From IMG/VR virus record IMGVR_UViG_2713896834_000003, positions 1 to 6,615 of that record: a DNA stretch of 6,615 nucleotides. The stretch is one strand, 5' to 3'. Position numbers and translations under genes: made by a program. Below, piece after piece: positions 1-6,615 of the stretch. Origin of the DNA: a virus. Taxonomy: Duplodnaviria; Heunggongvirae; Uroviricota; Caudoviricetes. The notes under the pieces were generated by a model. That model made no database searches. It worked only from the letters and a program-made list of their open reading frames with translations, and was not told the origin of the DNA. Numbering within the stretch: the first letter of the stretch is position 1; each line of letters starts with the position of its first letter.

Positions 1-109
1 ATTATATCGAATGTGATTACAATCGGTGGCGGCGGCACAGTTGGTGTGGCGGCCTCAGTCCGGAACAATTTGAAAACAAGAACCTCGCTTAGGCCTGTGT
101 CCATATTAC

Positions 110-574
110 GTGGGTAGGATCACTAAAGGTGTGCAGCCGATTACAAATTTTGACGCCAACCGCTACCTCGGAAAATGGTATGAAATAGCTCGCCTCGAGA
201 ACCGGTTCGAACGTGGTCTGGAACAGGTCAGCGCTACTTATGGAAAACGGAACGACGGAGGGATTCGTGTACTTAACCGTGGATACGATCCAACGAAAAA
301 TAAATGGAGCGAGAGCGAAGGTAAAGCATACTTTACTGGAGATACTAAAACTGCAGCATTGAAGGTTTCGTTTTTTGGCCCCTTCTATGGTGGCTATAAT
401 GTAATCAAACTGGATGATGAGTATAAGTATGCTCTTGTCAGTGGTCCGAACAGAGAATACCTATGGATTCTGGCAAGGACCCCAACTATTCCAGATAAAG
501 TAAAAGCAGACTATGTGCGAACCGCTCAAAAGTTGGGATTCAATGTCAATGAATTATTATGGGTTAAACAATAA
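110..574 (+). CDS. blc: Blc-family bacterial lipocalin, apparently 5'-truncated (no signal peptide, no lipobox, no ATG start)
   Basis: The 154-codon frame carries lipocalin motifs as in enterobacterial Blc (NFDANRYLGKWYEIAR, EGKAYFTG, KVSFFGPFYGGYNVI, YLWILARTP). The frame is closed by TGA at 71-73; the first possible start is GTG at 110 with no convincing Shine-Dalgarno, and there is no ATG anywhere in the frame. Stop TAA at 572-574. Confidence 0.55.
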   Translation: MGRITKGVQPITNFDANRYLGKWYEIARLENRFERGLEQVSATYGKRNDGGIRVLNRGYDPTKNKWSESEGKAYFTGDTKTAALKVSFFGPFYGGYNVIKLDDEYKYALVSGPNREYLWILARTPTIPDKVKADYVRTAQKLGFNVNELLWVKQ

Positions 575-601
575 AATCCCTACCCGAAATAATACTTATT
601 A

Positions 602-629
602 GAAAAAAACCAGCCTTTGGGGAGGCTGG
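602..629 (-). terminator. Intrinsic terminator for minus-strand transcripts downstream of Q (tR'-like); the same hairpin lies just 3' of the convergent lipocalin ORF
   Basis: Perfect 7-bp GC-rich inverted repeat CCAGCCT (610-616) / AGGCTGG (623-629) with a 6-nt loop. On the plus strand it is preceded by a 7-A run (603-609), which is a U-tract immediately after the hairpin on the minus-strand RNA. Confidence 0.55.
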
Positions 630-688
630 CTAAATCAGGAAACAAGCTGTTATATGATAATAACTACGTTGTGATTCCAACATTTAAA

Positions 689-717
689 ATGTTAGACTAA
701 TGACAATCAGACAGCAA
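689..717 (-). promoter_or_regulatory. Candidate late promoter (pR'-like) immediately downstream of Q
   Basis: On the minus strand, TTGCTG (717..712), a 17-nt spacer, then TAACAT (694..689), located between the Q stop (730) and the hairpin terminator. Position is analogous to lambda pR'/tR'. Motif match only; the -10 is weak. Confidence 0.25.
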
Positions 718-729
718 CTTTTCCTTTAA

Positions 730-1107
730 TTATTTCGAACAATCAGCATCCATCTCCAATCGGAGATCCAACACCATCAGCATACCCTCCACTACGCCCT
801 CAGCTTTCTGAAGCATCCTGCCAACCCAACAATCAGATCGCCCATGCTTACGTGCAAGCGCCATAAAAGTCATGCCGCCGACATAATAGTCCACCAATAA
901 ATCATGCAAATCGCTGTTGTTCTTTTTCAGACGGGCCATGCACCCGCAAATGATCATCGCATCATCGTCACAACATTGCGGGCGAGATTTTACTTTTGAA
1001 GGAATTAATCCCTTAAAACCGGCGGCAATGGACGACCAAGTCACATCTTCATGATTATTAGCCGCCCACGCTCCCCAACGCTCAAGAACCATCTGAATAT
1101 CACGCAT
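730..1107 (-). CDS. quuD: Late-gene antitermination protein Q (phage 82 / DLP12 QuuD type)
   Basis: Translation from ATG at 1107 ([33 protein letters not shown]..., Cys-rich [16 protein letters not shown]) matches my recollection of 82-type Q / QuuD. GGAG lies 7 nt upstream of the ATG. The track's longer form begins at a TTG five codons upstream. Position after the nin genes fits. Confidence 0.8.
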
Positions 1108-1192
1108 CAACTTACTCCACAAAAATCAGACCAGAACGCCAATCACAAGCAAAAATCAACAAAACAGTATTAGTTGATTGTTATCTCTGACT

Positions 1193-1333
1193 TCATACTC
1201 CTGCTCCTGTCAGGGTTTTGGCGTAATTCTTCAGTATTCGGTAATCGGTCAAAACAGAACCGGGGAAACGATATAAGCGCAGATGCCCCCAGCGGTGGCG
1301 AAGAAGTTCTGCCATATAAAACTCAAACATCAT
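1193..1333 (-). CDS. ylcG: Small protein YlcG-like (46 aa), between rusA and Q
   Basis: Not in the ORF track (too short). Minus-strand ATG at 1333..1331 overlaps the rusA stop (ATGA). Translation [46 protein letters not shown], stop TGA at 1195..1193. Size and position match ylcG of DLP12-type prophages; sequence identity not verifiable from memory. Confidence 0.45.
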
Positions 1334-1692
1334 TCATTCCCCATTTCGGTGATGGTCAGTTCCAGCCTCCCACCTTTGGTAACAGGCATCTTCACAACGC
1401 GGTAATCAACGACCTGAGCATCATCCAGCCAGAAACCTGCTTTAGTGAGTGCGTCAAAAGCGGCTTTTTGCAGATTATCCAGGTCACGGCGACGGCGATC
1501 CGGCATGTGGCACTCAATGCGGATTTTCACAGGCATAGCCAGGCCGATATCCAGCATTGCGTTTTTAATGATTCGGGCGACGTTATCGCGGTATGCCTGC
1601 CCCTCTGCGCTGACGTGCGTGCGCCCGCGATTATGGCGGTAATAGCGATTATTGCTCGGAGGCCAGGGTAATGTGATGTTGTAGGTATTCAC
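1330..1692 (-). CDS. rusA: Holliday junction resolvase RusA
   Basis: Residues [119 protein letters not shown] match RusA essentially end to end. Probable GTG start at 1692..1690 overlapping the ybcO stop (GTGA); the track's longer N-terminal extension is rejected. Confidence 0.9.
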
Positions 1693-1979
1693 GCCTTGAT
1701 TACCCCCTCTTTCATCCAGATAACCTGCGTTCTCGCCATACCTTCCAGCGCGCATTCTTTTGCATATGCGGCATCGACAAAATGTGTGCGGCGGTCGATT
1801 TCGTCGTGGCAGGCAGAACATGCAATGGTGGCAATCAGGTCTGGCGGTTTGGTACCGGTGCCGCACAATCCAGTCAGCCGGATATGTGCCAGTACAGACG
1901 TTTCAGGGTTGCCATTACATACGCCAGGGGTTCTTACCTGGCATTCCCGACCACGCGCTGCTTTTCTCAAATCAGCCAT
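1689..1979 (-). CDS. ybcO: DUF1364-family phage protein (YbcO-like, Cys-rich, putative zinc-binding)
   Basis: Translation from ATG at 1979 ([34 protein letters not shown]...[11 protein letters not shown]...) matches DLP12 YbcO as I recall it. AGGAGG lies 4 nt upstream. Start overlaps the ninE 3' end. Confidence 0.8.
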
Positions 1980-2142
1980 GATTCCTCCTTGCTGCCAGTC
2001 GCAACCATTTTTTATCAACCAGGCTGGCGGTATATCCGAGCAGTGTTGGTATTTCGGATGGCTTCAGCTCAGGTTTACGCTTACGACGATTTGGTACTCT
2101 GTAGATGTGTCCGTTCATGACACGAATAAGCGGTGTAGCCAT
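1972..2142 (-). CDS. ninE: NinE-family protein (56 aa)
   Basis: Hand translation of the minus strand gives [59 protein letters not shown] at 2142..2140 overlaps the ybcN stop (TAATG). Matches DLP12 NinE in length and position. Not in the ORF track. Confidence 0.7.
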   Translation of the reverse strand: MATPLIRVMNGHIYRVPNRRKRKPELKPSEIPTLLGYTASLVDKKWLRLAARRNHG

Positions 2143-2597
2143 TACGCCTCCTGCTTGTCGCGCAGCAGCTGGAACTCGCAGCTCTGCGGAATAGTCAGGT
2201 GGCAGCCAATATTCATCGCCCAGGCTTCAACCTTACACAGGAAGACATACATCTCTCCGGCATCAAGATCGGAGGTATGGCGTAACGACTGGATAGTGGT
2301 GATTTCACCGGTTACGACATCAACCAGTTCTTTGGTTTCATAACCGAGGTATGTGTGTTTGAGAGCTTCTTTTACCCATGCTGCGGTAGCGAACGATTTC
2401 CCCCTGCTGATAAGGTATTCACTGATTTCGCTGTACCACATGTGGCTGAGTGCATTCTGGGAAAGACTGCGTTTCTCACGCCACGGTTTAAGCACCATGC
2501 GAAAGCATTTTCCGTCCTCCAGATAAGGCTGGATCTGCTGGCCGATAGCGGTGAAGTTGCCGCGATGTAATTTGATGCCATCTTGTGGTAGGTTCAC
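2142..2597 (-). CDS. ybcN: NinB/Orf-family recombination protein (YbcN-like)
   Basis: 151 aa containing the NinB-type RSLSQNA motif at the same relative position as RSLDQN in lambda NinB. GTG start at 2597 with GGAGGTG 3 nt upstream. First gene of the nin-type block. Confidence 0.8.
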
Positions 2598-2787
2598 GCT
2601 TCACCTCCGCAGAGGTCAAACGCAGGATGCAAAAAATCGCAGGTGCATTTCTGCATCTGTGAAGGGAGAAGAGAGTTTGGATTGTATGTGCGCATAAACG
2701 TCCCCGTTTAGCGCAGAAGTCACCGGAGTTGTTCAAGCTCCGATGACTTTATTATTACGAATTGATTTTACAAAATCAAAAGGTATG

Positions 2788-3240
2788 TTAGTGACGCGGG
2801 TCTGTTATTATGCGAGAAGGGTTTCCGTATAAAACAAGGACCTTACTTCCTTGAGTAAATAACGGATCTTTGCCTTGAACAATGGTCATTAAATTCCCAT
2901 TCTCAGTTTCGACAACATATTCCATGCCTGTTTGTTTTGTTGCTGAAGATTCGATTGCTGCCCCGGCAATACCACCAATGACTGCACCACCAACGGCACC
3001 AACGATATTAGAACGAACTCCCCCACCAAGCGCAGAACCAGCGGTTGCCCCCACGGCAGCCCCAGCAGTCCCGCCTAACGCGGAAGTCCCACTGATATCA
3101 ACCCCCCTGGCACTAATAACTGTACCAGCGATAGTTCGATTAACCATGCCCACAGAGCCAACAGAATAACTATTTGGCGATATATTTTGTGCGCATCCAA
3201 CCAACACTAAGAGTGGAGCAATTACGAATAATCGCTTCAT
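2788..3240 (-). CDS. Outer-membrane lipoprotein, SlyB/Pcp-like with glycine-zipper domain
   Basis: Signal peptide plus lipobox (MKRLFVIAPLLVLVG|C, Ala at +2), then a long Gly/Ala zipper (ALGGTAGAAVGATAGSALGGG...VGAVGGAVIGGIAGAAI), then a C-terminal segment (GMEYVVETENGNLMTIVQGKDPLFTQGSKVLVLYGNP) resembling the SlyB C-terminus. Start ATG overlaps the upstream gene's stop (ATGA). Confidence 0.7.
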   Translation of the reverse strand: MKRLFVIAPLLVLVGCAQNISPNSYSVGSVGMVNRTIAGTVISARGVDISGTSALGGTAGAAVGATAGSALGGGVRSNIVGAVGGAVIGGIAGAAIESSATKQTGMEYVVETENGNLMTIVQGKDPLFTQGSKVLVLYGNPSRIITDPRH

Positions 3241-3797
3241 TTAGCTACCCTAACAGGAAACATTGGACGAGAAAGATCAACACTTTCTAATGCTTGCAAG
3301 AACTGCGTTATGTTGTTTTGCACCGCGCGATTAACAGATTCGCGTGCTCGAACAATACCGTAGAATGCGTAACTGGCTGGAACAGTACCGGTAGACTCAA
3401 TATCCTGCGTATATATAATATCACCATTCGCACGGTTGATTATTTCATACCTTGCAATTGCTTTAGTTGTCATTGAAACACCAAAAGCAGGAACGTCAAG
3501 AGCCAACACTTTAACATTTAAGCTAACCGTATTTGGTGAACTATCACGAAAAATAGTCATTCGGTCGAGTGCTTCCTGCAAAGATTCACGCCAAATTGGA
3601 GTTATAGCCTCCATACCAGCAGTGATATCCCCTTTCTGCTCATCTGGACGAGCAAGTGATACCGTTAATGACTTAATTTCAGCATCTATTTTTTTCTGGC
3701 TAACTCCCACGTTAGGTGTTGAAAAATTCAATGGTGGCACACTAGCGCAACCTGTTAAAGAACCAATAATCATGGCTAATAATATTATCTTCTTCAT
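3237..3797 (-). CDS. Lipoprotein of unknown family (186 aa), first gene of the two-gene cargo operon
   Basis: Signal peptide plus canonical lipobox (MKKIILLAMIIGSLTG|C, Ala at +2, so predicted to be sorted to the outer membrane). AAGG-type SD 6 nt upstream of ATG 3797. Translationally coupled to the downstream SlyB-like gene. I do not recognise a family. Confidence 0.7.
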   Translation of the reverse strand: MKKIILLAMIIGSLTGCASVPPLNFSTPNVGVSQKKIDAEIKSLTVSLARPDEQKGDITAGMEAITPIWRESLQEALDRMTIFRDSSPNTVSLNVKVLALDVPAFGVSMTTKAIARYEIINRANGDIIYTQDIESTGTVPASYAFYGIVRARESVNRAVQNNITQFLQALESVDLSRPMFPVRVAK

Positions 3798-3959
3798 AAA
3801 TTTACCTTATTGTTATAACCAAAGGAATTATAAAGTAAAAAAGTTCACTATCACTAGCCATTAACGACATCAATTTCAGAGAAACATGGTACTCATTTCC
3901 ACAAATTTGACACAAGTCATTTTCATCTACATATTCCATCATACTTGATGCATATGTTA

Positions 3960-3988
3960 TTGAAGCCTCTATCCTATCCGTTCATAAT
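3960..3988 (+). promoter_or_regulatory. Candidate sigma70 promoter for the small membrane ORF
   Basis: TTGAAG (3960-3965), 17-nt spacer, CATAAT (3983-3988), in the AT-rich divergent intergenic region, about 65 nt upstream of ATG 4054. Motif match only. Confidence 0.3.
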
Positions 3989-4053
3989 AGCAATAGTTAC
4001 CCGGGTGATAGTACCTCTATGATTACTCGTCTTTCTGATTGATTGGATTAAAT

Positions 4054-4245
4054 ATGCGCGCCAAAATTTATCAACTTTCGTTATGGATATTTATTTCGTT
4101 TCTAGCGATCTATGCCTTTATTATCTATAAAGGTTCTTATATTGGAGTAGCATTGCATCAAATTGCTTGGATCATCATTATTGCCTCTGGCTTGATTGCT
4201 AGGCTAACTAAACCAAAGCAAAAACCAATTTCGTCCAATAATTAG
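4054..4245 (+). CDS. Small hydrophobic protein (63 aa), two predicted transmembrane helices and a basic C-terminal tail; function unknown
   Basis: Translation MRAKIYQLSLWIFISFLAIYAFIIYKGSYIGVALHQIAWIIIIASGLIARLTKPKQKPISSNN. Very AT-rich and divergent from the lipoprotein operon. Weak RBS. The track starts it at an upstream TTG (4039); ATG 4054 is preferred. Confidence 0.4.
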   Translation: MRAKIYQLSLWIFISFLAIYAFIIYKGSYIGVALHQIAWIIIIASGLIARLTKPKQKPISSNN

Positions 4246-4281
4246 ACATGTATTAAAAAATGATATTTTTATGTACATAGT

Positions 4282-4575
4282 CTATTGAAAATTGCCGCGA
4301 TAAAATGCCAACACCCGCTTCATCGCGGCACTCTGGCGACACTCCTTGAAAATCAGATTCGTGCTCACCTTTCCTTCCCGTTCTTCCCTGGTAGCGAACC
4401 GGTAATACACCGTTCGCCAGACCTTACCATCAATAACTAAGATTCCTGTCCGCGCCATTTTAGCCGCAGCCTGGTTTATGCTGGTTACTGTTGCGCCTGT
4501 TACCGCAGCAACGTCCTGCGCACAGAAGCTCTTATGCGTCCCCAGGTAATGAATAATTGCTTCTTTTCCCGTCAT
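4282..4575 (-). CDS. ren: Ren protein (Rex exclusion resistance), lambda-like
   Basis: 97 aa, MTGKEAIIHYLGTHKSFCAQDVAAVTGATVTSINQAAAKMARTG...WRTVYYRFATREEREGK..., matching lambda Ren as I recall it. ATG overlaps the P stop (ATGA). Confidence 0.9.
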   Translation of the reverse strand: MTGKEAIIHYLGTHKSFCAQDVAAVTGATVTSINQAAAKMARTGILVIDGKVWRTVYYRFATREEREGKVSTNLIFKECRQSAAMKRVLAFYRGNFQ

Positions 4576-5273
4576 ACACTGGCTCCTTTCAGTCCGAACT
4601 TAGCTTTGATTTCTGCAATCTTCGCCAGAGCCTGTGCACGATTTAGAGGTCTACCGCCCATGACAGGAAGTTGTTTTACTGGTTCAGGGATCGCCTCACC
4701 ACGGTTAATTCTCGCAGTCATATGGACAAGCTCATCTGCGGCCTTACGGCGTAATTCCGCATCAGTAAGCGCATTGGCCCGCATGTTCTGATACAGGTTG
4801 GTAACCAGCCAGTAGTGCGCGTTTGATTTCCACGGATAAGACTCCGCATCCGGATACAGGCCTCGCTTCCGGCAATACTCGTAAACCATATCAACCAGCT
4901 CGCTGACGTTTGGCAGTCCGGCGATAACGGATGCTTCTTCCCGGCACCATGCAACAAACTGCCCGGGTGATGGCAGGAATGGTCGATTCTGCCGACGGGC
5001 TACGCGCATTCCAGCGTTAACCTGTTCCATTGTGGTGATCCCGTTTTCCCGAAAAGCCAGCACCCACTGGCGGCGGATTTCGTTCAGTTCGTTCTGGTCC
5101 CGGTTAGCCAGGCTCGCTGGGAAAGTTGCCAGTAACTGGCTGAATACACCGTTGATTATCTGCGCTACCTGCTGTACCTGCGGCTTTTCGTCGTACTGTT
5201 CCGGCATGTTATTGGCGATCCGGCACATCTGCTCACGGTCAAAGTTAACCATCTGTGCGGCGATGTTTTTCAT
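4572..5273 (-). CDS. P: Replication protein P (DnaB helicase loader), lambda-type
   Basis: 233 aa, matching my recollection of lambda P along its whole length (MKNIAAQMVNFDREQM...AKFGLKGASV). ATG overlaps the O stop (ATGA). Confidence 0.95.
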   Translation of the reverse strand: MKNIAAQMVNFDREQMCRIANNMPEQYDEKPQVQQVAQIINGVFSQLLATFPASLANRDQNELNEIRRQWVLAFRENGITTMEQVNAGMRVARRQNRPFLPSPGQFVAWCREEASVIAGLPNVSELVDMVYEYCRKRGLYPDAESYPWKSNAHYWLVTNLYQNMRANALTDAELRRKAADELVHMTARINRGEAIPEPVKQLPVMGGRPLNRAQALAKIAEIKAKFGLKGASV

Positions 5274-6199
5274 AAATCCACCCCGTAAATCCAGTCAGTG
5301 TTCGTCAGGTCGAGTTTTGGTTTGCCGGCTGTCACGCCAGCCTGTTGCTTGTTTCGGTTGATTTCGAGCTGGGTCCACTTGTCGCGGAGTTTGGCCGGAC
5401 TCAGCACGTTACCGGACCAGAAGTTGTCCTGGCAGGCCCAGCGGAACAGTACACACATGTCGCGGTGGTTACGTCCATCACGTTCACGCATCAGACGGAT
5501 ATCGTTAGCCCACCCTGCAAAATTCGGTTTTCTGGCTGATGGCGCGATGGTCTTCACCATGTCAAACATCCACTCTGCGGCGGTCAGGTCTTCTGCTGTC
5601 CCCCACTTGCTGCCGTTCTGAATCGCAGCATCCGCTTTCACCACAGGAAGGTCGTTTTCTGGCAGGTCAGAGGATTCGCCAGAATTCTCGGACGAATAAG
5701 GTTTTATATTGTCTTTTGTTAGTTTGTCTTTTGTGTTTACCTGATTCGGGTAAGTGCCTTTACCTGATTTGGGTAAACTTTTCTTACCTGATTCAGGTAA
5801 ATTTACCTCTTTCAGGTAAACTTTATTTTTCTTACCTGATTCGGGTAATGTTGACCATTCACTGACCACATTATTAATGCCTATATTCCGCCCGCTCTGA
5901 ATAAAAATCCCACGCTTTACCAGAACACTTTTTGCAGCAGAACACTTGTGCGGCAATATCCCGGTCAACTCGGAAAGTTGCTCGTTGCTCACCCAATCCA
6001 GTTTTTTATTAAAGCCATATGTTTTGCGCATGACAGCCAGGAAGACCAGAAGCTGGTGCTGTGTTAATCCGGCCAGCATTACAGCTTCCAGCAACTCATT
6101 TGCAATGCGCGTATAACCATCATCGAGATCTGCCACGCGCGGCTCCTTTTGTGCCGCATCCGGCACTGGAAAATTGAATATCTCAGCAGTGTTTGCCAT
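5270..6199 (-). CDS. O: Replication initiator O (origin-binding), lambdoid
   Basis: From ATG 6199 (GGGAGG upstream) the N-terminus MANTAEIFNFP parallels lambda O MTNTAKILNFG. The C-terminal region (WANDIRLMRERDGRNHRDMCVLFRWACQDNFWSGNVLSPAKLRDKWTQLEINRNKQQAGVTAGKPKLDLTNTDWIYGVDL) closely matches my recollection of lambda O. The track's longer ORF begins at an in-frame ATG at 6289 (alternative start). Confidence 0.9.
   Translation of the reverse strand: MANTAEIFNFPVPDAAQKEPRVADLDDGYTRIANELLEAVMLAGLTQHQLLVFLAVMRKTYGFNKKLDWVSNEQLSELTGILPHKCSAAKSVLVKRGIFIQSGRNIGINNVVSEWSTLPESGKKNKVYLKEVNLPESGKKSLPKSGKGTYPNQVNTKDKLTKDNIKPYSSENSGESSDLPENDLPVVKADAAIQNGSKWGTAEDLTAAEWMFDMVKTIAPSARKPNFAGWANDIRLMRERDGRNHRDMCVLFRWACQDNFWSGNVLSPAKLRDKWTQLEINRNKQQAGVTAGKPKLDLTNTDWIYGVDL
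5690..5848 (-). other. Replication origin (ori) embedded in the O gene: iteron array plus adjacent AT-rich region
   Basis: Five iterons at 5737-5848 followed, in the direction of O transcription, by an AT-rich stretch (about 5690-5736). This is the same architecture as lambda ori inside O. Confidence 0.65.
5737..5848. repeat. Five 17-bp palindromic iterons (consensus TTACCTGATTCGGGTAA), putative O-binding sites
   Basis: Direct repeats at 5737-5753 (TTACCTGATTCGGGTAA), 5760-5776 (TTACCTGATTTGGGTAA), 5784-5800 (TTACCTGATTCAGGTAA, a perfect palindrome), 5803-5819 (TTACCTCTTTCAGGTAA) and 5832-5848 (TTACCTGATTCGGGTAA). Confidence 0.8.
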
Positions 6200-6285
6200 A
6201 ATTCCTCCCGCAATGAGTGTGTTACGATTTGCACCTGAAAGTCGGTTCTGTTCCAGCAGACCGGCTTTCGCCATTTCTGAACCTG

Positions 6286-6615
6286 TCATATCGCCCCCAG
6301 CATGGTAGTAACCATCGCCATCAATGGACCAGCCAGATCTGGGTCCACACGAAACATCGACACAATACCTTCACTAATTTCCTTCAGTTTCTGGTGGCGT
6401 GGTGCGTTGAGAATGACAGCCTGTTTTGCCTCACTGAGTTCCTTTTCCATTTCAGCCAACCTAGCCATGAAGCTATCCTGCTCAACCAGGTAACCGCGAT
6501 ATTCCAGCGGTAGTACCGCCAGAATTGCCGGGGTCAGTTCACGCACGTTATTTCGGTATTTTTCAGAATCGAATTTGTTATCGAGGAAGCGGAACAGCTT
6601 CTGGCGTGCACGGCT
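6286..6615 (-). CDS. Hypothetical protein, C-terminal part only (5' end lies beyond the window); occupies the position upstream of O
   Basis: The minus-strand frame is open from the window edge (…SRARQKLFRFLDNKFDSEKYRNNVRELTPAILAVLPLEYRGYLVEQDSFMARLAEMEKELSEAKQ…TMLGAI) to TGA at 6288..6286. It does not resemble lambda cII. Its stop overlaps an ATG in the O frame. Confidence 0.5.
   Translation of the reverse strand, partial: SRARQKLFRFLDNKFDSEKYRNNVRELTPAILAVLPLEYRGYLVEQDSFMARLAEMEKELSEAKQAVILNAPRHQKLKEISEGIVSMFRVDPDLAGPLMAMVTTMLGAI

Follow-up and report, generated by a model that had tools for sequence, protein, structure and literature searches.

A lipocalin open reading frame without ATG or signal peptide, convergent with antiterminator Q in a lambdoid prophage, is very probably a blc pseudogene interrupted by IS3

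Why does a lipocalin of the Blc type, a family of outer-membrane lipoproteins, appear next to a phage antiterminator gene with neither an ATG nor a signal peptide? The question is raised by a stretch of 6,615 nucleotides from a virus of the Caudoviricetes (IMG/VR record IMGVR_UViG_2713896834_000003, positions 1 to 6,615), which is called the window here. On its plus strand, a TGA at 71-73 is followed by an open frame that extends from 74 to 574. The first possible start in this frame is a GTG at 110, 36 nt downstream of the TGA, from which 154 codons run to the stop at 572-574. The translation of the frame contains no Met and, therefore, there is no in-frame ATG. The original prediction had described the open reading frame in just this way (no ATG, an in-frame stop 36 nt before the GTG, 154 codons, and the residues LGLC just upstream), and re-reading of the window gave the same picture. 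It had left two interpretations side by side, namely a 5'-truncated remnant marking a recombination or prophage-decay junction, and a non-secreted lipocalin variant that uses a non-ATG start.

That the product belongs to the Blc family, as had been proposed, was borne out by several comparisons. The open reading frame matched the Pfam family PF08212 (Lipocalin_2) with E=6.2e-44 and 149.9 bits (cut-off 24); the beta-barrel profile was thus scored above its curated cut-off. The NCBIfam model NF007786 ('outer membrane lipoprotein Blc') was matched by window positions 125-574 with 277 bits against a cut-off of 267, this match covering only positions 26-174 of the 176 positions of the profile. The structures of Escherichia coli Blc, 3MBT and 1QWD, matched with E~1e-66 and approximately 63% identity. 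The first conserved lipocalin motif, G-x-W-[YF], is present as GKWYEIAR and was aligned with GTWYEIAR of Blc, and the phage protein family phrog_2809 was matched from end to end by the lipocalin gene. A type II signal peptide with a lipobox cysteine is absent from the open reading frame in the window, and the DNA upstream of 123 is IS3. A protein look-up found no record of the 154-aa product that would start at GTG110.

The first 122 bases of the window were identical, at 122 of 122 positions, to copies annotated as 'IS3-like element IS3 family transposase' in E. coli EC98 and in another E. coli prophage locus (L020), where the matching IS3 copy is located elsewhere than at the lipocalin locus. 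When 5426 complete E. coli genomes were searched, all of the top matches had an IS3 family transposase annotated at the place of the first ~120 bases. Window position 92 corresponds to position 8092 of the EC98 locus (L001), at which the IS3 transposase coding sequence of EC98 ends, so that the OrfB frame ends just inside the right repeat. The terminal repeat ends in CA and pairs with the other end of the element in the EC98 copy. IS3 is an element of 1258 bp with orfA and orfB joined by a programmed frameshift and with a 3-bp target duplication. The window agrees with it in the OrfB C-terminus and in the inverted repeat, but it holds only the final 122 bp of the full element. The window starts inside IS3, and therefore only these last 122 bp are displayed, fused to codons 26-174 of the lipocalin gene. 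The coordinates of the features are collected in Table 1.

Table 1. Features of the window that bear on the lipocalin reading frame, with the basis of each assignment
Feature	Position	Strand	Basis or content
Right end of insertion sequence IS3 (the window opens within the element)	1..122	+	122/122 identity to annotated IS3 copies
Last 29 codons and TAG of the IS3 OrfB transposase, YIECDYNRWRRHSWCGGLSPEQFENKNLA*	3..92 (stop 90-92)	+	Translation; end of annotated EC98 transposase CDS
Outward-facing IS3 promoter boxes TTGGTG and CAATTT	41-46, 66-71	+	Charlier et al. 1982, as quoted in PMC12095673
IS3 right terminal inverted repeat, ~39 bp, ending ...GGATCA at 122	84..122	+	IRL/IRR comparison in the full EC98 copy
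Mechanical ORF with GTG start, 154 codons	110..574	+	4 IS3 codons, 1 junction codon, native codons 26-174
5'-truncated blc-like lipocalin gene	123..574	+	Identity to intact alleles from 123; NF007786; Lipocalin_2; alignment with BL21 and phage alleles
Hairpin and T-run terminator between lipocalin gene and Q	601..631 (terminator 631-608)	-	9-pair stem, 5 G-C pairs, tail TTTTTCT
Antiterminator Q, convergent with the lipocalin remnant	730..1107 (or to 1122)	-	PF06530, E=2.5e-51

Both peculiarities of the 5' end lie inside the right inverted repeat of IS3: the codons that read LGLC (89-100) and the GTG at 110. The GTG, the four codons that follow it and the LGLC are IS3 repeat that is open in the lipocalin frame by chance. 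The frame is open throughout 74-574, as the original prediction had stated, but bases 74-122 of it are IS3 inverted repeat, and DNA of the gene is present only from 123. Native lipocalin sequence resumes inside codon 25, and Lys26 is encoded by 125-127. Codons 1-25 are missing from the gene in the window, together with its promoter, ribosome-binding site, start codon, signal peptide and the lipobox Cys19.

The missing part was seen in uninterrupted alleles. Window positions 123-6615 were identical to four prophage loci (L015, which is CP043274.1, and L017, L020 and L021) at 6493 of 6493 positions (100.000%), and each of the four carries an uninterrupted lipocalin gene of 174 aa. The exact end of the homology to the uninterrupted allele is at 122/123. 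The intact alleles encode MKLWPVLTGIALSFTLIAC/KAPTPPKGVQPITNF..., with a short basic n-region, a hydrophobic core and the lipobox LIAC; in every uninterrupted allele compared, ATG, signal peptide and lipobox were normal. By the '+2 rule', a residue other than Asp after the lipobox cysteine predicts sorting to the outer membrane. The intact alleles have Lys after the cysteine, and this residue predicts outer-membrane sorting of their products, as for Blc. The reading as a non-secreted variant with a non-ATG start is therefore unsupported, since GTG110 and LGLC are in IS3 and the uninterrupted alleles have both ATG and signal peptide.

A closely related interruption was found in E. coli EC98 (NZ_CM128669.1), to which all 6615 bases of the window could be matched with 0 mismatches and one 9-bp gap at the junction. 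EC98 has a complete IS3 of 1258 bp, flanked by a target duplication TGC, and the far side of the element carries the 5' fragment of the gene (MKLWPVLTGIALSFTLIACKAPTPPKGV...). A displaced piece with the signal peptide, for which the original prediction had suggested looking upstream, is accordingly present in this sister allele, beyond the 1258-bp IS3. The automatic annotation (PGAP) labels the two pieces of the EC98 gene 'blc ... missing N-terminus' and 'hypothetical ... missing C-terminus'. The EC98 pseudogene (ACSU4L_RS15815) shares with the copy in the window the prophage, the orientation of IS3 and the kind of truncation; it differs in that its IS3 lies 9 bp further into the gene and has the TGC duplication. 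The left flank in EC98 retains the 9 bases, and thus the junction in the window represents a separate event; the coordinates compared were 8113-8130 of the EC98 locus (L001) and 135-150 of another (L008) against 113-136 of the window. At the EC98 junction, the last base of IS3 and the duplicated TG form an in-frame ATG (..ATC ATG CAG CCG..). In another locus (L013), an inverted IS3 was observed at the same TGC site as in EC98. The IS3-truncated copy of EC98 is already annotated at NCBI as a blc pseudogene.

Taken together, the feature is very probably an IS3-interrupted blc pseudogene of a known phage moron, which would have arisen by a simple and recent insertion into codon 25. A lambdoid (DLP12-like) prophage would have carried the gene for a Blc-type lipoprotein lipocalin of 174 aa as cargo, placed immediately downstream of Q and facing it, and codon 25 of this gene would then have been hit by IS3 in the source strain. 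Such an insertion would remove the promoter, the ribosome-binding site, the ATG, the signal peptide and the cysteine to be lipidated, and what is left would be a pseudogene lacking both promoter and leader, which, we infer, makes no functional protein. The 5' fragment would persist beyond the element, and CTA would be present as a 3-bp target duplication. A simple insertion thus predicts the left end of IS3 as ...GACACCACCTA/TGATCTTACC..., with both halves of the gene kept and CTA duplicated; the same left junction may also be written as ...CCGACACCACCTA/TGATCTTACCCAGC, where the CTA duplication is again expected. The lipocalin body looks intact because the insertion would be recent, as there are 0 substitutions in 6.5 kb relative to the uninterrupted prophages, and for the same reason its intactness needs no selection. 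The idea of a truncated remnant at a junction was therefore right about the 5' truncation; its partner, however, is IS3, and the junction is probably not a scar of prophage decay or of recombination between phages.

IS3 might also have acted in another manner, by deleting or inverting adjacent DNA, with loss of the 5' part of the gene and of late genes beside it; the junction would then be one of decay. In the Qin prophage of E. coli B/BL21 (L002 4930-6269), and in E. coli C and many other strains, an IS3 in the same orientation is located 413 bp upstream of the point that corresponds to the junction in the window. It abuts truncated genes on both sides, one of the DUF523 (2-thiouracil desulfurase) family and one for a head fibre, and the lipocalin gene is intact; this arrangement implies an IS3-associated deletion of the lysis region, which evidently took place there. 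Moreover, the left flank of the IS3 in the window lies outside the window. A 36-mer across 122/123 was absent from the GTDB genome representatives, the JGI metagenomes and IMG/VR, and the junction of IS3 with CTAAAGG was not found in the 5426 complete E. coli genomes; the left flank is unseen because the exact junction was absent from all of the collections searched. In EC98, however, with 0 mismatches, the corresponding event is a clean insertion of 1258 bp with a 3-bp duplication and both halves of the gene, and the rest of the prophage in the window is identical to the uninterrupted copies. An IS3-mediated rearrangement is thus unlikely here, although it keeps an appreciable chance.

The remnant could be expressed as a leaderless, cytoplasmic lipocalin by transcription from IS3, either as read-through from the transposase gene or from the outward promoter in its right end, with translation starting at GTG110 or at the second in-frame GTG (GTG131). 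The lipocalin body is intact and identical to that of functional alleles, and the mature domain contains no cysteine and therefore has no disulfide requirement. An AGGA/AAGG-like sequence precedes GTG131, and its duplex with the anti-SD is predicted at -6.4 kcal/mol, compared with -4.1 kcal/mol for the native ATG, and public gene callers choose GTG131 (giving a product of 147 aa) on many contigs. The TTGGTG and CAATTT boxes of the reported outward IS3 promoter are upstream of both GTG codons, so that some expression would be possible. However, the right end of wild-type IS3 showed no detectable promoter activity in a reporter assay of 2025 (PMC12095673), a study that had selected this end for that reason, and a scan for consensus promoters, which was checked for an IS3/flank hybrid, found no plus-strand promoter in window positions 1-140. 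The spacing of the SD-like elements near GTG131 (1 and 11 nt) is poor, and GTG110 is without an SD-like sequence; its start region is IS3 repeat and therefore was not shaped for translation of a lipocalin. Recency accounts for the intact body, and an outer-membrane lipoprotein has no obvious role in the cytoplasm. Furthermore, alleles interrupted by other kinds of IS, at different sites and in either orientation, occur just as well (see below), which fits neutral or inactivating hits rather than a selected fusion. Expression of this kind is accordingly very improbable. It is scarcely probable, too, that IS3 transcription with a makeshift ribosome-binding site at GTG131 would yield a soluble cytoplasmic barrel with a new, ligand-sequestering role. 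On the whole, a functional leaderless lipocalin is unlikely, with only a slender chance.

The frequency with which the gene is broken was estimated among the 5426 complete E. coli genomes, of which 1143 (~21%) carry the lipocalin locus, 1036 of them with at least 80% of it contiguous. From 5 to 9% of the carriers have a broken lipocalin gene, usually by an IS. In public assemblies (L005-L014), at least 9 independent disruptions were found in the first 85 bp of the gene: three by IS3, two by IS2, two by elements of the IS66 family, one by IS10 and one by another element of the IS3 family, in addition to one 1-bp deletion. IS3 and IS2 each abut the 5' end of the lipocalin gene in both orientations. 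This set was ascertained through a look-up of the 147-aa product beginning with GTG131, and it therefore catches only breaks upstream of codon 28. Elsewhere in the gene, an IS3 was found at a site corresponding to window ~422-424 (L024, 13376-14936). A hot spot for IS at the 5' end, or a selection for loss of the signal peptide, was considered and rejected: when breaks were counted without this bias in three equal 200-bp segments of the gene over the 5426 genomes, 22 of 1133 were broken in the 5' segment, 9 of 1128 in the middle and 22 of 1130 in the 3' segment, with no enrichment at the 5' end. The appearance of a hot spot is misleading because an allele must be broken at its 5' end to yield the product that was looked up. 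Like much prophage cargo, the lipocalin gene is simply a frequent target.

The remaining question is whether the gene belongs to the phage. In EC98, in BL21 and in phages, the gene next to the lipocalin is annotated as a Q family protein of 125 aa. The intact lipocalin gene lies between Q and, on the other side, a ybgA-like gene (DUF523 and DUF1722), a gene for an AraC-type HTH protein and the genes for holin, endolysin and spanin. This order was seen in the isolated phage IdasGreatGrand (99.7% nucleotide identity) and in 11 Lambda-like phages, in which the gene is named 'Lipocalin Blc'. Mathieu et al. (2020, PMC6969025) count blc among the morons of temperate lambda phages from infant-gut E. 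coli, with over 50% of their 19 phages carrying it. The phage moron (Lambda_2E9, Lambda_ev087 and 1H12, among others; phrog_2809; WP_000780584.1 of the Qin prophage of E. coli B/BL21) and the gene in the window are the same gene, with 93-99.7% nucleotide identity; they share the slot and the convergent orientation, with the ybgA-like gene and the lysis cassette beyond. Unlike the moron of those phages, the copy in the window is without codons 1-25, because of the IS3 there.

A contrary view would be that this DNA has nothing to do with the prophage and is either plain chromosomal flank or chromosomal blc itself. PGAP does label some copies 'blc: outer membrane lipoprotein Blc', and the chromosomal Blc of E. 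coli (1QWD, 2ACO and 3MBT) shares with the window gene the fold family and the match to NF007786. However, the identity to chromosomal Blc is only ~63% over the barrel, the gene lies between Q and the holin, endolysin and spanin genes in isolated phages and in prophages, it is present in just 21% of the complete E. coli genomes, and phrog_2809 is matched end to end. The intact phage alleles have a lipoprotein signal, as does chromosomal Blc, whereas the copy in the window has no signal for export or lipidation. The gene in the window is thus a phage-borne paralogue at a genomic location other than that of chromosomal Blc, and a chromosomal origin is hardly credible. Chromosomal flank, which the original prediction had named as a finding that would overturn it, was ruled out by the location in phages and by the comparison of the slot that follows.

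In four loci (L016 at 13264-14361, L018, L019 and L022), an nmpC-like porin gene (PF00267), likewise convergent with Q, replaces the lipocalin and ybgA genes on the same backbone. The lipocalin gene is therefore a non-essential gene in a conserved slot between modules of viable phages, replaceable on a collinear backbone, as expected for a moron. The nmpC gene of DLP12 resembles the lipocalin gene in being outer-membrane cargo in the post-Q slot, convergent with Q, and it is likewise known to be inactivated by IS elements; its family (PF00267), however, is unrelated to lipocalins. In E. coli K-12, nmpC is interrupted by IS5. The presence of a porin in place of the lipocalin means that the slot is one for interchangeable outer-membrane cargo. 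The original prediction, which had placed the lipocalin at the usual cargo position downstream of Q, was well founded in this respect, given the viable phages with an intact gene at this position, the porin alternates and the survey of infant-gut phages (PMC6969025).

Between Q and the lipocalin gene, there is no consensus terminator other than the one listed in Table 1, which is canonical on the Q strand only. Its position, ~100 bp beyond Q, is one at which a terminator of the tR' type for the late promoter is expected, and the hairpin has no U-tract on the lipocalin strand.

Some other genes of the prophage may be mentioned. In the nin region, two overlapping genes on the minus strand (3237-3797 and 2788-3240) encode predicted lipoproteins (MKKIILLAMIIGSLTGC... 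and MKRLFVIAPLLVLVGC...), the second of which has a glycine-zipper segment that scored below the Pfam cut-off. The pair matches phrog_12521 and phrog_13877 end to end, both families of unknown function, and the two genes are probably further envelope morons. Between ren and this pair, and opposite to the flanking early genes, a plus-strand open reading frame (4039-4245) encodes a protein of 68 aa (63 aa in relatives) with two hydrophobic segments and no Pfam match. Outside the window, the prophage locus L015 has genes for a HipA-family kinase and a DUF3037 protein (4183-5756) beside an S24-type repressor gene in its immunity region, and these may form a toxin or defence pair.

Thus, the correct label for the feature is an IS3-interrupted blc pseudogene, and not a non-ATG or non-secreted lipocalin. 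When a truncated gene is joined in frame to the terminal repeat of an IS, the repeat can pass for a start codon and even for a lipobox. The finding has little importance beyond correct annotation; the slot downstream of Q carries interchangeable outer-membrane cargo, a lipocalin or a porin, which is often knocked out by IS elements.
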